A stretch of DNA of 64,000 bases from Candidatus Hodarchaeota archaeon (GCA_016840035.1 JAEOTC010000076.1:9419-73418); one strand, 5' to 3'. Numbered from the stretch's first letter, positions 19,541 to 34,594 are shown. Numbers and translations: made by a program. Notes: generated by a model not told the origin, from the letters alone.

Positions 19541-21427
19541 ATGGTAAAATCTATGCAAGAACAGCTCTTTTTAGATTTAAGAAAAGCCATAGCCAATAGG
19601 AATATACACCGGGTTAACGACATACAAAAGAAACTTCTATCACTAGATTCTGACCAAAAAGATGAGGATTTGTTTTGGAAACTTCGCATAGAAGCAGAAA
19701 TCCATCATTTCAGACGAAATTATTCCCAAGCAATTTCAATTCTTGAAGAAGCTCAAAATCTGCAAGTGAATCTTTCATTGACTGACAATCAGCTTAGTAG
19801 TCTAAGAGGTAGATATGCCTCCTGTTTATATTCAATAGAAAACTATGAAAAAGCTCACGAGGAGTTTTCCAAAGCCAAAGATTTGAGTGGCCACGATATT
19901 CCAAGATCTTTCTATTACAGATTAAGGATACTTCAATGCTTGCTTAAATTAGATAGAAAATCAGATTATTTTACCTATTATTTTGAGATAATTGAATGTT
20001 TCTTTACTAATCCGTTAGAAAAAGTGTGGAATCACCACTTAGATTATGCTTGGAATCTGATTTCAAGTATCCAGACGAGTAACTGGTTTGGAGAAATCAA
20101 AAAGCTCACATTTGAATATTCCCCTGACAAAACAGAGAATTATACCTCATCACTTTTATATTTTCTTTTTGCCCTTCTCTCCCGGTCTGAAAGCAAATAT
20201 GATGAGATGATCACACATATGAACTCTAGTCTTGCAGCTTTCAGGGAGGGATGGAACGTTAATGATCATAAAAACCTATTACTTAATTGTGCAAATCTTG
20301 TTAGATACCCGTTCAGTGATTTCGCTACCGCTCAAACATTGTTGGAAAAGGCGTTGGCTTTAAGTCCTGATCCTGATGGGTGGAGAGCACAAATTTTAAA
20401 TTCCTTAGGGTCTGTCTCACGATTTACAGGAAATTATCCTCGGGCTATTCAGGTTCTCGAGGAATCTATTGATATTAGTAGGAAATTTCCTTACTTATAT
20501 CAATTAGGATTCGCATATAACACATTGGGAATGGTTTATACACTCTTAGGAGAAAACTTCAAGGCTAAAAAAGCTTTCGAATCAAGTCTTGATTGTAATA
20601 TCAAAGAAAACAATTTCACTGGGCAGGGATATACATTTGGATCAATGGGATGGCTTGAATCTGTGCTGAATAACTTTAAATCAGCTAATGTGTACTATTC
20701 CAAGAGTATAGATGCGTTTGAGAAGTTTGGGAACACACCCCCGATCATTCTTCTCGCAAAAGCGGAAGTCTTATCTCAAATTCATAATTTCATGACTCCT
20801 GATATAGAGAAGTTGCTAAAAAACGCACATGAGCTAATTTGGAAACGTAAAACACGATTAGATAAAGGCAGATACTATATCACATTAGGACATATCTATT
20901 TCAACTTCAAGGATTACTCTAGAGCTGAAGAAAATTATTTAGAATCGCTAATATTTGATGATATTTACGAAGTTTATTCTCAAGGTCTTTTAGGCATAAT
21001 AAAGGTAAAAACATTTCTTTATATCGAATCTGATGACATCAATTTCATGAACCAAGTTAAAACAAGACTATCAAGCCTCAACTCTCTAACTCAAGAGAAT
21101 TCATTGTTGTGGGCAGAGATGAATTTAATTTCATCAATTATTGATATATCGGAAGGAAAATTTGGACAAGCTACCAACAATTTAAAATTATTACGTACTT
21201 ATTCAGAGAATCATGGATTGATCGGGCTTCAATCCCGAATATTAAAGCAAGAAGACTACCTAGCTATATATCAGAAGTACGTACAAATTCAGGATCAAAT
21301 TCAGGATCAATCAGAGATAGAAGATGCAAAATCACAGTCCTTAATGGATGTATTGGATTACTTAAAGGCAATTTCACGCCTATTGACTACTCATTCGACT
21401 GACACCAAGTCTAAAGACCCTAAATGA
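19541..21427 (+). CDS. TPR-repeat protein
   Basis: Many 34-aa A/Y/L-patterned helical repeats (e.g. YNTLGMVYTLLGENFKAKKAFESSL). Confidence 0.75.
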   Translation: MVKSMQEQLFLDLRKAIANRNIHRVNDIQKKLLSLDSDQKDEDLFWKLRIEAEIHHFRRNYSQAISILEEAQNLQVNLSLTDNQLSSLRGRYASCLYSIENYEKAHEEFSKAKDLSGHDIPRSFYYRLRILQCLLKLDRKSDYFTYYFEIIECFFTNPLEKVWNHHLDYAWNLISSIQTSNWFGEIKKLTFEYSPDKTENYTSSLLYFLFALLSRSESKYDEMITHMNSSLAAFREGWNVNDHKNLLLNCANLVRYPFSDFATAQTLLEKALALSPDPDGWRAQILNSLGSVSRFTGNYPRAIQVLEESIDISRKFPYLYQLGFAYNTLGMVYTLLGENFKAKKAFESSLDCNIKENNFTGQGYTFGSMGWLESVLNNFKSANVYYSKSIDAFEKFGNTPPIILLAKAEVLSQIHNFMTPDIEKLLKNAHELIWKRKTRLDKGRYYITLGHIYFNFKDYSRAEENYLESLIFDDIYEVYSQGLLGIIKVKTFLYIESDDINFMNQVKTRLSSLNSLTQENSLLWAEMNLISSIIDISEGKFGQATNNLKLLRTYSENHGLIGLQSRILKQEDYLAIYQKYVQIQDQIQDQSEIEDAKSQSLMDVLDYLKAISRLLTTHSTDTKSKDPK

Positions 21428-23064: not shown

Positions 23065-23751
23065 CTAGTTTTGTTTTTCCTCTATCTTCCAAACACTCTC
23101 TCCTTGCCAATCTCGAATTCGCTTAACTGGACTCCCAGCGTAAATCGAATTTGGTTTAAGCACTCTATTTGCAGGGATCACGGAGTTACTAGCTACAATA
23201 ACATTATCTTGAATCGTAACTCCAGGTAATATTATGGTTCCTGCTCCTATTGTACAATTTTTACCAATGATTATTCTCTTACGAAAAAGTTCCCCCTGTG
23301 AAATAGCATGGGCGCCAATAATACACCCAGTTCCGATTGAGGTGTTCTCCCCGATCTCCATTAATTCTACATCCCAGATTCGTGTATAAATTGCTGCTCC
23401 TTTTCCTATTTTTGCACCAAATAATTTATAGAATAATGAGGGGAACATCTGGTTGATAAACATCTTATTTACAAAATAATATGCTGTATCGGCCGCAGTC
23501 ATACCCACACCCCAAAGTATTTGGTCACGGCCAGTTAAAATACCTTCCTCATTTTTCATGAGCATTCTAGCTGACTTATGTATAGCTGCTAGAACAAACA
23601 AACCAGTAAATAAGGTTAATGTTATAGCAGATATTAAAGACAAGAACAAATTATTGAAAAACAAGTCATTATAAAATAAATCGAAGTAAAATACACCTAC
23701 AAAGATAACTGATGCGAGTAAGACGATCTGAAAGAGAACCCAGGCAGCCAT
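23065..23751 (-). CDS. Membrane-anchored hexapeptide-repeat (LbH) acyltransferase
   Basis: Two or three N-terminal TM helices, then IGENTSIGTGCIIGAHAI..IGKNCTIGAGTIILPGVTIQDNVIVASNSVI. ATG 23751 lies 10 nt after the upstream gene's stop. Confidence 0.75.
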   Translation of the reverse strand: MAAWVLFQIVLLASVIFVGVFYFDLFYNDLFFNNLFLSLISAITLTLFTGLFVLAAIHKSARMLMKNEEGILTGRDQILWGVGMTAADTAYYFVNKMFINQMFPSLFYKLFGAKIGKGAAIYTRIWDVELMEIGENTSIGTGCIIGAHAISQGELFRKRIIIGKNCTIGAGTIILPGVTIQDNVIVASNSVIPANRVLKPNSIYAGSPVKRIRDWQGESVWKIEEKQN

Positions 23752-23761
23752 TATGTATCCC

Positions 23762-25420
23762 TTAGATATCAATATTTTTGGAGGGGGACAAGTGGCCAAA
23801 GACCTCTTCTGCGATATCTACCGCTCCATCAAAGACACTTCGTGCTCCATTCCAAGTTGCAAGATATTTGCCGTACTGGGCACAAAACTTTGTTTGAAAT
23901 TCGTGTAAGGCTTTCTTTAATTCTAAATCGTGCTTATTACTGAAAATTACTGCAGAAATTCCACTACTACTATCCTTATCGGTTATTATAAAGTGATTAC
24001 CGTGCCTAACTAAATTTAGGTCTCCTTTTTCTCTCATCATTTCAGACATGAATGAGGAGACTGCAGTTAAAGCTCCTGACAAGAGTGTAAGTTCAATATC
24101 CGTATCAAGTTCCTTTTGAAAGGCATAATCAAATAATGGTAATCCCCCTTCTTCAATTACCATTAGTAGGGTAAAATCCAGTGGTTCATAGCTATCAGTT
24201 GTCCAAAATAGGGGGAAAGCAGCAAAAAATGCCAATATGATAAGAACGTATGTTACATAATCTAGATTTTCTAAGAGAGGGACCAATAACCAATGCCCTA
24301 CACCATATCCCGCCCCAAGTCCAAATGCGAGTGAAATAAAACCTAACGCAAAGTAGCGACCTAATCCATCCCGCGGAGAAAGATCAGCCCACAAAGAAGA
24401 GTCCAAAGTCGGATGAATTAGAGCAAATGAGAATCCAATTGTCAATGCAGAAATTGCGAAACTTAGCTCTGAATGTTCTAATCCAAGGATCATGGCAGAT
24501 AAAACGATACCGTACAAAGCAAGGACCATAAGATTCTTCCTTCCTATTCGATCAGCTATGATTCCAGCGGGTATGACTAGTATTAAATCGCCAATTAACA
24601 CCAAAACCCAGAAAAGCTTGTCAATGGTAAATTCTAATTCCCCAAGTGCGGGAATCTCATAAGTTTCCGAAATATTTAGAACAGATCCAATTAAAGGGAA
24701 AATAGCGATGGATATACCTAGCATACAATACAATAAGAAGTGAGTACTCAAGTATGCTTGAACAGACCTTCGTCCTACAATTTTTGTAAATTTGGTGGGC
24801 CAAGCATCCGGAATCCAATATTTCAAGTCTCGTGAGAGAACGAAGAAGATAACAGTTAATATAAGTCCTAATATACCAATTCCAGGAATTATTACAGCCC
24901 AGCTATTACTAAGTGGATCCGAAGTAGCAAAATTAGAGGAGATTTCGTCACCAACTACAATACAGATGAGTACTAAGATTATAAACATGAATATCGATGC
25001 TGAATATGTTTTTCCACGAGCAGTTGTGTCAGTCAAACCTGCGAAGATTGTGCCGCTACTAGTAAGAAGAATGGCAAAGGAAAAGGCCAAACCTACGAGA
25101 GAGAGGGAAAACAATATAGTAGAATTAATAAAAACGATAAATAGAATTGAAGTTATTGACGCACCCAGCATCCCGATTACAACACCTTTCTTTAGGAACT
25201 CTGGGTGTGAATCAAGGTAATGGCCTGTAAAATACAGTACTAGGATGACAAGAAGAAGAAGGACCCCGAGAATAATAATTCCAAAACCCATGAAAGGGTT
25301 ATCTTCCGATTGTTCAACATAATCCAATATATCAAAAGAGTAAATTAGCAATAATGTCGCAGCTAAGCACCATGTGAACGTACTGGGGATCAAGATTAGA
25401 AAAAATCTTTTTATATTCAT
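23762..25420 (-). CDS. MFS-like permease with C-terminal cytoplasmic longin-like (SNARE-like fold) domain
   Basis: About 12 TM helices with the ADRIGRKNLMV loop motif. The last ~130 aa (LLMVIEEGGLPLFDYAF..LTAVSSFMSE..ISAVIFS..QYGKYL..EEVF) align by eye with the N-terminal domain of the 29534..30304 product. Confidence 0.75.
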   Translation of the reverse strand: MNIKRFFLILIPSTFTWCLAATLLLIYSFDILDYVEQSEDNPFMGFGIIILGVLLLLVILVLYFTGHYLDSHPEFLKKGVVIGMLGASITSILFIVFINSTILFSLSLVGLAFSFAILLTSSGTIFAGLTDTTARGKTYSASIFMFIILVLICIVVGDEISSNFATSDPLSNSWAVIIPGIGILGLILTVIFFVLSRDLKYWIPDAWPTKFTKIVGRRSVQAYLSTHFLLYCMLGISIAIFPLIGSVLNISETYEIPALGELEFTIDKLFWVLVLIGDLILVIPAGIIADRIGRKNLMVLALYGIVLSAMILGLEHSELSFAISALTIGFSFALIHPTLDSSLWADLSPRDGLGRYFALGFISLAFGLGAGYGVGHWLLVPLLENLDYVTYVLIILAFFAAFPLFWTTDSYEPLDFTLLMVIEEGGLPLFDYAFQKELDTDIELTLLSGALTAVSSFMSEMMREKGDLNLVRHGNHFIITDKDSSSGISAVIFSNKHDLELKKALHEFQTKFCAQYGKYLATWNGARSVFDGAVDIAEEVFGHLSPSKNIDI

Positions 25421-28719: not shown

Positions 28720-28968
28720 AAAACAAGGGAAAAAACATCTATTTCAGTATCAGTCTGTTTTGGTCAGGAATACGAATTTGTATTTATTTCAGTTACCTTA
28801 TATTTGAAAGAATTTATGAGATTAAATTGTATTCTATCATCATACGATATTTTAAGATTAACAAGTAAAGAAATGGGGATTAAAAGTATCTTCATCCTAC
28901 CATGCCTCCAAGTATAAAACTTAAAAATGTCGAACTCGGATAAGAACGCAAGTTTTAGGCGGAAAATC

Positions 28969-29529
28969 ATGACAAATAAAGAAATTAAGCATGTATTAAA
29001 AATACTCTTACTTGGGGACGGAGCTGTAGGTAAAACTTCGTTAATTTTGAGATTTATAGAAAATAAATTCAAGGATGAATATTCAGTTAGCTTAGGCGTT
29101 GATTTTCTAACTAAAACAATTGAATTCATTGATGAAGATGATATTAAGCGAACTGTTTCTCTACAGGTCTGGGATATCGCAGGACAGGCCCGACATGTCT
29201 CCTATTCACATCTATATTTGAAAGGGGCATTAGGTGCTTTCTATGTATTTGATTTAACAAGAAAGGAGACTCTCGCCCATATTCAGAATCGTTGGCAACT
29301 TCAGGCTCTCAAAGCATCGCCCAACCATCTTGGAATCCTTATTGGAAATAAGGCTGACCTAGTTAAGGAACGAGATATTCCAAAAACACAATTAAAGAAA
29401 ATAATTGATAGTATGCACGTCTTTGATTTCATTGAGACCTCCGCGAAGACCGGCAGGAACGTTAACAAGGCTTTCCGAGTGTTAACCACAGAAATCCTTA
29501 ACGTAAAACCAAAAAAATTCCTGAAGTGA
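28969..29529 (+). CDS. Rab/Ras-like small GTPase
   Basis: G1 GDGAVGKTS; switch I YSVSLGVDF (Rab-like TIGVDF); G3 WDIAGQ; G4 GNKADL; G5 ETSAKTG. No C-terminal Cys prenylation motif; the tail is basic (KPKKFLK). Confidence 0.9.
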   Translation: MTNKEIKHVLKILLLGDGAVGKTSLILRFIENKFKDEYSVSLGVDFLTKTIEFIDEDDIKRTVSLQVWDIAGQARHVSYSHLYLKGALGAFYVFDLTRKETLAHIQNRWQLQALKASPNHLGILIGNKADLVKERDIPKTQLKKIIDSMHVFDFIETSAKTGRNVNKAFRVLTTEILNVKPKKFLK

Positions 29530-29533
29530 GAAC

Positions 29534-30304
29534 ATGTCCCCTTTAACTGAATTTAAAGCTGTGAAAGCATTTTTTATTTTTGAGAAGGATCAAGGTACAA
29601 CACTCTTCACACGATCATACGAACGAAGCTCTACTGCTCCCGATGCACATCTAGTGGTGGCATTTCTAACCGCAATGTTTTCCTTTGCTAAAACAACTTC
29701 ATTAAGTGACCTCCGCGTTGTTGATATGACTGATATTCGGTTTTCTTTTATTGAGAAAAATGGGCTAATTTTTGCAGTTTTAGTCTCCCCATTAGTATCT
29801 CCGCTAGATATCCAATTTAAATTGTCCACTATTGCGAGTTTATTTTTTTCTGACTACGGGGCAAAATTAGAATCAATAGATATTGTCGACACGGAAATGT
29901 TTTCAAGTTTCAATGATTGTGTGGATGAAGTATTTACTGGGGAAACACGACAGATGCTTAAATCTTCAAAAAATGCGGCACTGTTTTACCTAAAAAAATT
30001 AGTTTCTAAAGAGGAAACGGGGGCGCGTGGTGCAATGATTTTATCTTTCACTGGTGATATACTCTTAGAATATAAGATGGACCAACCACGTATGGCTGCT
30101 GCTATTCGTATACTAAATGTTGGAACATACATGACAAATCTCCGATATCTAGTTGTAGCTTCGGAGTCAACTCATTTAGTGGCGTATAAAATAAGTGAAG
30201 GATTACTGCTTGCCGTTGATGGTCACCCCTCATATGGATTAGAAGATCTTGTGGTAAATGTTTCAGAAACAGTCAAGCAGATTAAGGAAATAATCCCTCA
30301 TTAG
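29534..30304 (+). CDS. Two-domain longin-like + Roadblock/LC7(MglB)-like protein, putative GTPase regulator
   Basis: Starts 4 nt after the GTPase stop. N-half pattern is beta-beta-alpha-beta-beta-beta-alpha (FFIFEKDQGTTLFTRSY..AFLTAMFSFAK..LRVVDM..RFSFIEKNGLIFAVLVS). C-half (GARGAMILSFTGDILLEY..AAAIRILNVG..LRYLVVASESTHLVAYKISEGLLLAV) has a roadblock-type pattern. Confidence 0.75.
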   Translation: MSPLTEFKAVKAFFIFEKDQGTTLFTRSYERSSTAPDAHLVVAFLTAMFSFAKTTSLSDLRVVDMTDIRFSFIEKNGLIFAVLVSPLVSPLDIQFKLSTIASLFFSDYGAKLESIDIVDTEMFSSFNDCVDEVFTGETRQMLKSSKNAALFYLKKLVSKEETGARGAMILSFTGDILLEYKMDQPRMAAAIRILNVGTYMTNLRYLVVASESTHLVAYKISEGLLLAVDGHPSYGLEDLVVNVSETVKQIKEIIPH

Positions 30305-32227: not shown

Positions 32228-34594
32228 ATGACTGAAGAATCGGTAATTTGGGATTTAAAGGATATTAAGAGTAAAGATACGGAAATAAAGTGGACTGCTG
32301 TTAATAATCTGAGTAAATTCTTAACTGATAACCCCGAAAATTTTCGTTCCCGGATGATCATTAAATCATTTCTAACCATGATAAATGATCCTCATGATGG
32401 AATCCGTGAAACCATTTTCTCAACTTTAATGCGAAAACTTCAACCAAAGCAAATTGAGGGACTCATTAAGCGTGGGTTGGAAGATTCAAGTCCAAGTATA
32501 CGGTCCTTAAGTTTAGAATGGTTAAATACGACAAATCACAATACTATTACTACTCAAGCTATAGCTAGCTTACAAGATCCAAGTGAAGCAGTACGGAAAA
32601 TCGCTTTAGATATTGTAATAGCACGGGATATAAAGGGAGTTGAACAGAGATTATTGGAACTCCTTAGAAAGGAGAAAGGTGGATTACGTAGGACTGTTAT
32701 TTATGCTTTAGGGAAAATGCAGACTGTTGAAGCAGTAGGCACTCTTGTTGAAATAATGAGAAATCAAGAGTTTGATGATTGGACTAGAAATCAAGCTAGT
32801 TCGGCATTGGAGCATTTAGGAGGGAAAGAATTAATAATTCCCTTTATTGGAAATTTAATTGACGAGAATGATTATGTTCGTCAAACTGCAGCCGCTTTTT
32901 TAAAGAAGAATGAAGCTGATGTGCTTTCCGTCATCTTGAATCAAGCTAAATTGGATTATGTTGCTCTTCTTCAGCATGCAACGTCAACTACAAAGCAGGA
33001 CTTTAGTGGAGTGATAAAAACTCTAACAACTCAAATGGCTACTACGATACTTTCTCTTACAGATCAGCTTCAGGGGCGCGAGCAATTCTCAATACATACT
33101 TTATCTGAAGAATGGGGGGCCTCACCAATTGCAGTACGTATTATTCTTAGCAATTTCCTTGATCTTAGACTCTTTCCCCAACAAGAAGACAAATTTTACA
33201 CTGAATTAGGATTAAAGAACATTCTAATCAAGGAAGTTCAAGAAAGAAATTCTCTTGATCTTAAAAGTATAAAGAAAGAGTCTCCTTTTGATACAATAGA
33301 ACTTGAGGTTATTAAAGAAATATTAGGATCCATTGATACTATTCAATGTGTTTTCATGAATTTATATGTCAGTAGACAAACGTTTATGGAGATTTCCGAA
33401 GAATTCAAAGCTAGCGGCCAATTACCCCTCAAAACAATAAGTGACAAAGTGAATCAACCTCTAGAAATCGTTACAGAGGAATTTACAAAAGGTTTGATTC
33501 CCTCCGATGAGGGATGGATTAATAATCAAGGCGAATTTCTTACTCTCAAATTTATCGGTCAAAAGGTTCAAGAATCTCTTTCAAAATATCATATTATTGG
33601 CATAAAACCATTCTTACATAGCTTAGGGGAACCTAATGTTGATCATGCTGTATTGAGGAGGATTATTGAACGACATTCTGCTGGAAAGTGGTTAAATGAC
33701 ATTCAAGTTTATATCACTGCAGATGAGTTCAAGGAGATTGAAGAAAATTCGGTTAGAATTGATGAAGAAATTGTTAGGCATCTACTCGAGCCTATAGACA
33801 TGAAATTTCCAGTCTTTCTGGAAAGCTTACAAAAAGTTCTTGAAATAAGCACATATCAATCTTCAGGGGGACAGTTAATATCACTAGAAAGTCTTTACCC
33901 CCTTATTCAGCAGGAAATCAAGGAGAAGAGATATTTACCTCTAGATGGGTTTTTGGAGAGTAATGCTTTGGAATTAAATGTAAAACCTGTGATCCTTGAG
34001 TATTTAAATCAGAATTACCAGGGTAGGACTGATAATAATTCCGTCTACTTCTTTACAAATGATGTTTTAAGGGATGTACAAACAGAGTTTCAAAACAAGA
34101 CCCGTGTAAATTATAGTGTACTTGGGTTTAAACTGAATTTACCTATTGAGATTTTACAACAAATTATTATTGAAATTCTTAAAATTTCAGGAATTCACAA
34201 TAACCTTGGAGAATTCATTACTCTTGACGGTGTTAGGAACGAATATAAGCAAATTATCACCCATAAAGCAGAGTTCCCTTTAATCACCCTCCATGAAATC
34301 TTAGAAGTTATCGAGAATCAAAAAGCAATCAAAGCAATCGCCGACATTATAAAAAAGGATCCAGCAATTTATTTGTCTGTAAATGAAAAGCAAGTCTGGA
34401 CAAATCGTCGTGCGATCGAAATTGTCAACAGATTTTTGAAAAATCCCTCAAATTTAACCAGAAAGTCAATTTCTCTTTCAGAAATTAGCCAAGAAACAGA
34501 AGTATCTCGATCTGACCTCGCCAATATCATTAATACGCTCACAGAGAAAAATCTAGTGCGTGGAAGAATAAAGAAGAATAAATACGTCCAATAG
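32228..34594 (+). CDS. HEAT (PBS-lyase-type) repeat protein followed by an array of winged-helix-like modules
   Basis: The N-terminal ~230 aa hold at least 6 HEAT-like repeats (DPHDGIRETIFSTL, DSSPSIRSLSLEWL, DPSEAVRKIALDIV, RRTVIYALGKM, DWTRNQASSALEHLG, DYVRQTAAAFL). The remaining ~550 aa are a repetitive run of ~60-75-aa HTH/wing-like segments, ending ..SLSEISQETEVSRSDLANIINTLTEKNLVRGRIKKNKYV. Confidence 0.75.
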   Translation: MTEESVIWDLKDIKSKDTEIKWTAVNNLSKFLTDNPENFRSRMIIKSFLTMINDPHDGIRETIFSTLMRKLQPKQIEGLIKRGLEDSSPSIRSLSLEWLNTTNHNTITTQAIASLQDPSEAVRKIALDIVIARDIKGVEQRLLELLRKEKGGLRRTVIYALGKMQTVEAVGTLVEIMRNQEFDDWTRNQASSALEHLGGKELIIPFIGNLIDENDYVRQTAAAFLKKNEADVLSVILNQAKLDYVALLQHATSTTKQDFSGVIKTLTTQMATTILSLTDQLQGREQFSIHTLSEEWGASPIAVRIILSNFLDLRLFPQQEDKFYTELGLKNILIKEVQERNSLDLKSIKKESPFDTIELEVIKEILGSIDTIQCVFMNLYVSRQTFMEISEEFKASGQLPLKTISDKVNQPLEIVTEEFTKGLIPSDEGWINNQGEFLTLKFIGQKVQESLSKYHIIGIKPFLHSLGEPNVDHAVLRRIIERHSAGKWLNDIQVYITADEFKEIEENSVRIDEEIVRHLLEPIDMKFPVFLESLQKVLEISTYQSSGGQLISLESLYPLIQQEIKEKRYLPLDGFLESNALELNVKPVILEYLNQNYQGRTDNNSVYFFTNDVLRDVQTEFQNKTRVNYSVLGFKLNLPIEILQQIIIEILKISGIHNNLGEFITLDGVRNEYKQIITHKAEFPLITLHEILEVIENQKAIKAIADIIKKDPAIYLSVNEKQVWTNRRAIEIVNRFLKNPSNLTRKSISLSEISQETEVSRSDLANIINTLTEKNLVRGRIKKNKYVQ

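Follow-up and report, generated by a model that had tools for sequence, protein, structure and literature searches.

Longin and roadblock domains are central components of the eukaryotic machinery which places small GTPases on membranes and switches them there, and the Hodarchaeales have been proposed as a close relative of eukaryotes. Longin domains joined to a membrane anchor within one polypeptide are known from the longin SNAREs Sec22b, Ykt6 and VAMP7, in which an N-terminal longin domain is followed by a SNARE motif and a single transmembrane (TM) anchor. Secondary transporters with a small soluble domain on the cytoplasmic side are exemplified by the 12-TM protein YajR of E. coli and, by analogy, by the SLC26-STAS proteins; the YAM domain of YajR has a different fold and is unrelated to longins or GTPase regulators. 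In the PQLC2/C9orf72-SMCR8-WDR41 and SLC38A9/Rag-Ragulator systems, a transporter is coupled at its cytoplasmic face to a longin/roadblock module (PMC12290439). Longins of Asgard archaea show extensive domain shuffling (PMC10933270; PMC10936438; Liu et al. preprint), including fusions to Rag/Arf-like GTPases, TRAPPC3, Vps28 or an adaptin appendage (PMC10933270; PMC10936438) as well as to two-component signalling domains (Liu et al. preprint). Here, a window of 64,000 nucleotides from Candidatus Hodarchaeota archaeon (GCA_016840035.1 JAEOTC010000076.1:9419-73418; G+C content about 36%) was analyzed, in which the open reading frame (ORF) 23762..25420 on the minus strand encodes a 552-aa protein composed of a major facilitator superfamily (MFS) permease, a linker and a longin-fold tail.

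Like the longin SNAREs, this permease unites a longin domain and a membrane anchor in one chain, but the order is reversed, the membrane part is a transporter and no SNARE or coiled-coil motif is present. It shares the layout of YajR. Its likeness to the PQLC2 and SLC38A9 systems is one of functional analogy only, as their coupling is non-covalent and involves GAP-type (GTPase-activating protein) longins, which possess a GP motif as well as an arginine finger, whereas the fusion described here is covalent and both motifs are absent. The described Asgard longins come from the same phylum and have the same fold, yet their fusion to MFS or other polytopic membrane proteins goes unmentioned in the searchable literature, which did not include the asCOG supplementary tables of Liu et al.; the initial annotation, which knew of no described prokaryotic transporter-longin fusion, agrees with this. 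Public annotation of these genes reads just “MFS transporter.”

The structural and evolutionary description of the MFS-longin protein given below is regarded as highly reliable. The tail itself probably serves as a protein-protein docking or dimerization module, and the favored reading, held with moderate confidence, is that of a longin module which is tethered to the membrane and serves protein docking on the cytoplasmic side of the transporter. In the structural model, the last TM helix of a 12-helix MFS secondary transporter leads via a conserved 10-residue linker into the longin domain, which according to this proposal would be kept at the cytoplasmic face. As is the case for other longin and roadblock domains, the tail would associate with another domain of the longin or roadblock type, be it the tail of the other subunit in a dimeric transporter or a domain of a soluble protein, and would thereby provide a docking platform to small-GTPase machinery or else exert control over the transporter. 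Coupling of the tail to the transport cycle is conceivable.

Structure of the membrane domain and the tail

The membrane part matches Pfam MFS_1 (E=3.2e-12; 46.5 bits against a gathering score of 33.4), and NCBIfam yields a sub-threshold match to the MFS superfamily for the whole protein and nothing in the tail. An AlphaFold model of the full-length protein, calculated with 36 orthologues as input (predicted local distance difference test, pLDDT, 84.2; predicted template modelling score, pTM, 0.83), contains 12 TM helices in a 6+6 arrangement, the last of which ends at residue 405 according to DSSP, and a small extracellular β-hairpin. The ORF boundaries of the initial annotation are exact, and its division into ~415 membrane and ~130 soluble residues is matched by this model. 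Foldseek aligns the full model with LmrP, YajR (the second-best match), VMAT and GLUT at E~1e-8 and template modelling (TM-) scores to the target of 0.7-0.8, so that the predicted membrane part, by its likeness to LmrP, YajR and VMAT, is a generic DHA-like MFS. MFS motif A is found in the TM8-TM9 loop at residues 286-295 (G286-x3-D290-R-I-G293-R294-K295), where all motif residues are invariant or nearly so across the orthologue alignment and G286, D290, G293 and K295 are strictly invariant; the copy in the TM2-TM3 loop is degenerate (G66-x3-D70). Cytoplasmic termini are typical of canonical MFS proteins. A positive-inside count of seven K+R in the loops that face the same side as both termini and none in the opposite loops, together with the number of TM helices (12), likewise places both termini and the tail in the cytoplasm, as had been anticipated, and rules out an extracellular tail.

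A longin fold is defined by a five-stranded antiparallel sheet flanked by a single helix on one face and by C-terminal helices on the opposite face, while an N-terminal helix separates roadblock from longin domains. Modeled alone, the tail adopts the order β-β-α-β-β-β-α-α (pLDDT 77.6; pTM 0.76), and the same fold is recovered in the full-length model; DSSP assigns E-E-H-E-E-E-H-H-H in both independent models. The elements comprise β1 (416-422), β2 (428-433), α1 (444-461), β3 (470-473), β4 (476-482), β5 (489-494) and α2 (499-520), which corresponds to the β-β-α-β-β-β-α pattern first read from the sequence; residues 527-530 and 533-544 then form two further short helices. A Foldseek search of the tail against the PDB returned 57 matches at E<=1e-3, headed by TRAPP Bet5/TRAPPC1, Trs23, Mon1-Ccz1, AP-2 sigma, Sec22b, the SRX domain of SR-alpha and Fuzzy with TM-scores of 0.55-0.71 (0.64-0.71 for Bet5/TRAPPC1), in line with the longin-type fold originally suspected. 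MglB and roadblock proteins score below the longins (0.45-0.5). As the N-terminal helix is absent as well, a roadblock identity of the tail was ruled out.

The best matches of the tail are thus longins of the guanine nucleotide exchange factor (GEF) type, namely Bet5/TRAPPC1, Trs23/TRAPPC4, Mon1-Ccz1 and Fuzzy-Inturned (TM-score 0.6-0.7; E~1e-5), which also share its order of secondary structure elements. These proteins act as soluble components of GEF complexes built from several proteins, whereas the tail is covalently attached to a 12-TM transporter, and sequence identity amounts to ~13-16%. The tail has no Pfam match even at E<=10 and stays below the gathering scores of Fuz_longin_1, Sybindin, Longin, Clat_adaptor_s and SRX; members of its family show weak, sub-threshold Pfam matches only (Fuz_longin_1, Intu_longin_1, Robl_LC7 and Sybindin). 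A narrow tail profile found nothing meaningful among PDB sequences, and the best match of a broad family profile, the only near-significant one, was a partial alignment to Trs23 (E=0.008). On the basis of the models, the tail is a longin at the level of fold or superfamily and lies outside every curated sequence family.

GAP-type longins, the class of FLCN, NPRL2 and SMCR8/C9orf72 that also comprises the “GP-motif” longins of Asgard archaea, carry a GP dipeptide just before or at the start of β2 and a conserved catalytic arginine finger (PMC12290439). The corresponding region of the tail reads G426-L427-P428, many family members have D-G-R there, and the tail alignment contains no arginine which is invariant or nearly so. 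Since both the GP motif and the arginine finger are absent and FLCN, NPRL2 and SMCR8 do not occur within the top 50 structural matches of the tail, a GAP-type longin was ruled out.

Ligand binders of the GAF/PAS type share structural kinship with the longin, roadblock and profilin-like folds. A tail acting as a small-molecule sensor, by which a metabolite in the cytoplasm would exert allosteric control over transport, would accord with the strongly conserved polar loop motifs R-H-G (472-474) and S-N-K-x-D-P-E (494-500) and with the fusion of Asgard longins to two-component signalling domains (Liu et al. preprint). However, the loop motifs fit a protein interface equally well and no precedent for a ligand-binding longin is found within the structural matches of the tail, which leaves this explanation very improbable.

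Homology to a GTPase-linked longin protein

From positions aligned by eye, the initial annotation had concluded that the tail is homologous to the N-terminal domain of a 256-aa protein encoded next to a Ras/Rab-like small GTPase in the same window. The shared motifs (LF, LTA.SF, DL..V,.AV..S, YG..L and EVF) are reproduced by Smith-Waterman and hidden Markov model (HMM) alignments. At the level of the sequence pair, the similarity does not reach significance: BLASTP of the tail against the 256-aa protein returned nothing, and the Smith-Waterman score (z=1.86) was reached by 58 of 1000 shuffles, which is not above chance. A shallow profile-profile comparison (P=0.003) was suggestive only. At the profile level, the conclusion holds. 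An HMM was built from 148 tail-family domains collected by exhaustive profile search, with no orthologue of the partner included; among the 205 ORFs of the window, the only other one matched was that of the 256-aa protein, whose N-domain is aligned over its whole length at E=6.6e-13, while the next ORF scores 0.88. When six sequences with weak similarity to the partner were left out as a control, the N-domain was still matched (E=3.6e-12), and HHalign of this reduced family with the N-domain family gave a probability of 97.1% (E=5.3e-11; 127 columns), compared to 0.5% for a control against the C-domain. Furthermore, all 13 orthologues of the 256-aa protein in related loci are matched by the tail family. 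Chance similarity is therefore ruled out by the profile tests, although the pairwise tests are not significant, and a circular profile is ruled out by the absence of partner orthologues and the survival of the match in the leave-out control. Judged by these profiles, the tail and the N-domain are homologous and belong to one family.

The N-domain itself has a weak Pfam match to Fuz_longin_1 (E=9e-4). Its C-terminal neighbor has no Pfam match at E<=10 and its family profile no PDB sequence match; the only source for a putative roadblock identity, which the initial annotation had presumed, is the Joint Genome Institute (JGI) annotation of homologues as “Roadblock/LC7/MglB family.”

Conservation of the fusion and the wider Asgard family

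A word-indexed search identified 58 homologues of the permease with 33-88% identity, including some 50 full-length proteins of 540-567 aa, the closest relatives being metagenome-assembled genomes (MAGs) of Hodarchaeales/Heimdallarchaeia with 86-88% protein identity. A scan of GTDB species genomes yielded 31 loci, all in Asgard MAGs and mostly labeled Hod- or Heimdallarchaeota. These loci fall into two unlinked paralogue groups per genome, A and B, and most group A loci contain a third, tandem copy including the tail, so that a Hodarchaeales genome can possess as many as three paralogues. The occurrence of more than 50 full-length orthologues on independent contigs and in 31 genome loci rules out a mis-assembled or one-off fusion, a concern raised at the outset. 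The tandem MFS gene (L001 8125..9771 and the same position in L010-L020) is 34-41% identical to the permease of the window and likewise ends in the longin tail (E~1e-28). Its absence from the window and the closest relatives of the window (L006-L008 and L022) implies either a recent loss or a gain elsewhere.

The fusion is under selection, and conservation of the tail exceeds that of the membrane domain: the linker and tail (residues 406-545) reach a mean pairwise identity of 67% compared to 56% for the TM domain (1-405), and in comparison with the four most divergent orthologues the values are 46% and 33%, respectively. The highest values, 89% and 69%, are found in the cytoplasmic loop between TM10 and TM11 (336-352), and the linker residues D409, P413 and L414 are invariant. 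Due to the conservation of the tail and the TM10-11 loop and the invariant linker residues, docking of the longin domain on the cytoplasmic face of the transporter is suggested, with the contacts derived from conservation.

Searches with the tail profile retrieved 2120 cluster representatives at E<=1e-3, of which 230 remain when the threshold is tightened to E<=1e-10, and every member with an organism name is of Asgard origin. In 88 of the top 146 members, the module lies C-terminal to TM helices, usually 5-15 in number; the remaining ones are soluble fusions or stand-alone modules. The non-longin parts form at least 30 unrelated N-terminal clusters, the largest of which (34 of 111) consists of uncharacterized P0130/P0146-type proteins of ~715-750 aa which contain 9-12 TM helices and belong to no Pfam family, followed by MFS as the second largest. 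The P0130/P0146-type proteins thus make up another “dark” group of membrane-bound longins, larger than the MFS one. Soluble fusion partners include KaiC-type and ParA-type ATPases as well as HTH, PCI and Ig domains. The MFS-longin protein is thus one case of a large Asgard family in which the longin is placed C-terminally on many different polytopic membrane proteins, and this family is missed by both Pfam and NCBIfam. The MFS-longin protein thereby exposes, in those archaea that are most closely related to eukaryotes, a sizeable set of longins with a membrane anchor that has so far lacked annotation.

Among the soluble members, P0128 (2171 aa), P0230 and P0253 are very large proteins without TM helices which contain two or three spaced longin modules, at about residues 665-800, 1175-1305 and 1681-1808. 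A 379-aa Arf/Rag-like GTPase (L005 1664..2803) carries a C-terminal β-β-α-β-β-β-α module with a partial match to the same family (E~3e-6) and represents a direct GTPase-longin fusion. Both this fusion and the 256-aa protein belong to the known Asgard longin repertoire.

The breadth of the family bears on the principal alternative, according to which the tail is a purely autoregulatory or oligomerization domain that dimerizes or gates the permease from the cytoplasmic side without any link to GTPases. It would then be comparable to the STAS domain of SLC26/SulP proteins, the CBS domains of ClC or the YAM domain of YajR. The very short conserved linker and the highly conserved cytoplasmic loop suggest intramolecular docking, in keeping with the pTM of the two-domain model, the rank of YajR among the structural matches and the lack of an operonic GTPase at the permease locus. 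Conversely, the module is also attached to many unrelated proteins, soluble ones included, which favors a generic interaction module over a transporter-specific gate, and it is homologous to a longin from a GTPase operon. A tail confined to autoregulation is considered possible, though distinctly less probable than the docking module proposed here.

Genomic context and the proposed link to GTPases

The features of the locus are compiled in Table 1. The GTPase gene and the gene of the 256-aa longin protein are adjacent (1-4 bp) in 13 of 13 related loci which hold the pair; they thus form a conserved operon of two genes and are promising candidates for a GTPase and its regulator. The permease lies 3.5 kb away from this pair on the opposite strand, separated from it by genes for a peptidase, a kinase-lactamase fusion and a winged helix-turn-helix (wHTH) protein.

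Table 1. Coordinates of the MFS-longin gene, its parts and neighboring genes in the window.
Feature	Coordinates	Strand	Evidence or context
MFS permease with C-terminal longin-like domain, whole gene	23762..25420	-	Orthologues at 97-100% coverage; AlphaFold model
MFS membrane domain, residues 1-405	24206..25420	-	Pfam, AlphaFold, Foldseek
Short linker WTTDSYEPLD, residues 406-415	24176..24205	-	Conservation and AlphaFold
Predicted cytoplasmic longin-fold module, residues 416-544	23789..24175	-	AlphaFold, Foldseek, profile family, conservation
Membrane-anchored hexapeptide-repeat acyltransferase	23065..23799	-	Pfam Hexapep E=8e-12; directly downstream of and co-directional with the permease
Amino-acid-kinase-fold and metallo-beta-lactamase fusion, 572 aa	26717..28435	+	Kept in the syntenic block
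Ras/Rab-like small GTPase	28927..29529	+	Pfam Ras E=1e-40; 4 nt upstream of the 256-aa longin protein
256-aa longin protein (longin N-domain and C-domain)	29534..30304	+	Next to the GTPase
Longin-like N-domain homologous to the tail (256-aa protein, residues ~8-136)	29555..29941	+	hmmsearch, HHalign

Several observations weigh against a docking role that involves GTPases. Longin domains also have roles unrelated to GTPases. The permease has no operonic GTPase, and its linkage to the GTPase pair, which is found 4-9 kb away in 13 of ~20 group A Hodarchaeales loci (some of the others being too short), amounts to synteny of a ~15-kb block that includes both and is restricted to group A orthologues. 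The pair is not nearby in group B loci, at distant orthologues or in the group A-like loci L015, L023 and L005, and a small GTPase occurs within 6 kb in only one of five sampled members of the wider family. A permease-GTPase operon is accordingly ruled out at the permease loci and was not seen in the five wider-family contexts. As Asgard GTPases are reported to be generally absent from operons with their putative regulators (PMC10933270), the missing linkage is only weak evidence against a GTPase role.

The same gene order bears on a more specific model in which the tail forms a heterodimer with the 256-aa protein and thereby recruits, or reports to, the Ras-like GTPase encoded beside it, as the initial annotation had envisaged. 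Both longin domains are homologous, longins commonly pair with paralogues, for example in Bet5-Trs23 and Mon1-Ccz1 (PMC10933270), and the genes are close to each other in the group A loci mentioned above. Nevertheless, the opposite strands, the three unrelated intervening genes, the synteny of the whole 15-kb block, which renders the linkage unspecific, and the absence of the pair near the permease in L015, L023, L005 and all group B loci argue against this model, while co-occurrence cannot discriminate because each of the genomes concerned contains members of the two gene families. A dedicated partnership of the permease with the neighboring GTPase is thus not borne out by the gene arrangement and is deemed unlikely.

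For the membrane-tethered docking module, an involvement of small-GTPase machinery in general receives indirect support from the homology of the tail to the longin of the GTPase operon, from the fusion of a related longin to the Arf/Rag-like GTPase in L005 and from the closest structural likeness of the tail to GEF-type longins. It is nonetheless offered as a tentative proposal only. Dimers of longin and roadblock domains are described as GTPase platforms (PMC10933270). A broader and still more speculative idea is that membrane-integral longin platforms on transporters and other polytopic proteins dock Asgard GTPases or their regulators and couple them to the state of transport or substrate. 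No Asgard small GTPase is known to carry the lipid anchors of eukaryotic Rabs, and longin platforms could therefore bring these GTPases to membranes. If true, the Hodarchaeales MFS-longin protein would represent a covalent forerunner of eukaryotic nutrient sensing as known from PQLC2-C9orf72/SMCR8 and SLC38A9-Rag-Ragulator, and thus possibly an early version of transporter-coupled nutrient signalling. The expansion of longin and roadblock domains in Asgard archaea is a central clue to the origin of the eukaryotic GTPase machinery, for which the membrane-fused longin family provides concrete candidate membrane receptors. In addition, the label “MFS transporter” hides a conserved domain, and with a new profile the annotation of proteins numbering in the thousands would change.

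On its downstream side, the permease is accompanied by the hexapeptide-repeat acyltransferase, which has N-terminal hydrophobic segments and abuts the permease stop codon, with an in-frame ATG near 23751, ~11 nt past the stop. As the two genes are neighbors in most group A loci, the acyltransferase is likely the operon partner of the permease. The succession of a permease and a hexapeptide acetyltransferase recalls lacY-lacA, an analogy which may hint at the substrate. The Pfam families of the kinase-lactamase fusion were read from a 50%-identical homologue (L001 4904..6598). The syntenic block is flanked by a 788-aa protein (32228..34594, plus strand) and a 628-aa protein (19541..21427, plus strand), the latter TPR-like by eye and 28-59% identical among group A loci. 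An actin homologue (L004 12013..13098; Pfam Actin, 361 aa) is encoded two genes from the most distant MFS-longin orthologue and probably reflects coincidental eukaryotic signature protein (ESP) content of the Asgard genome.

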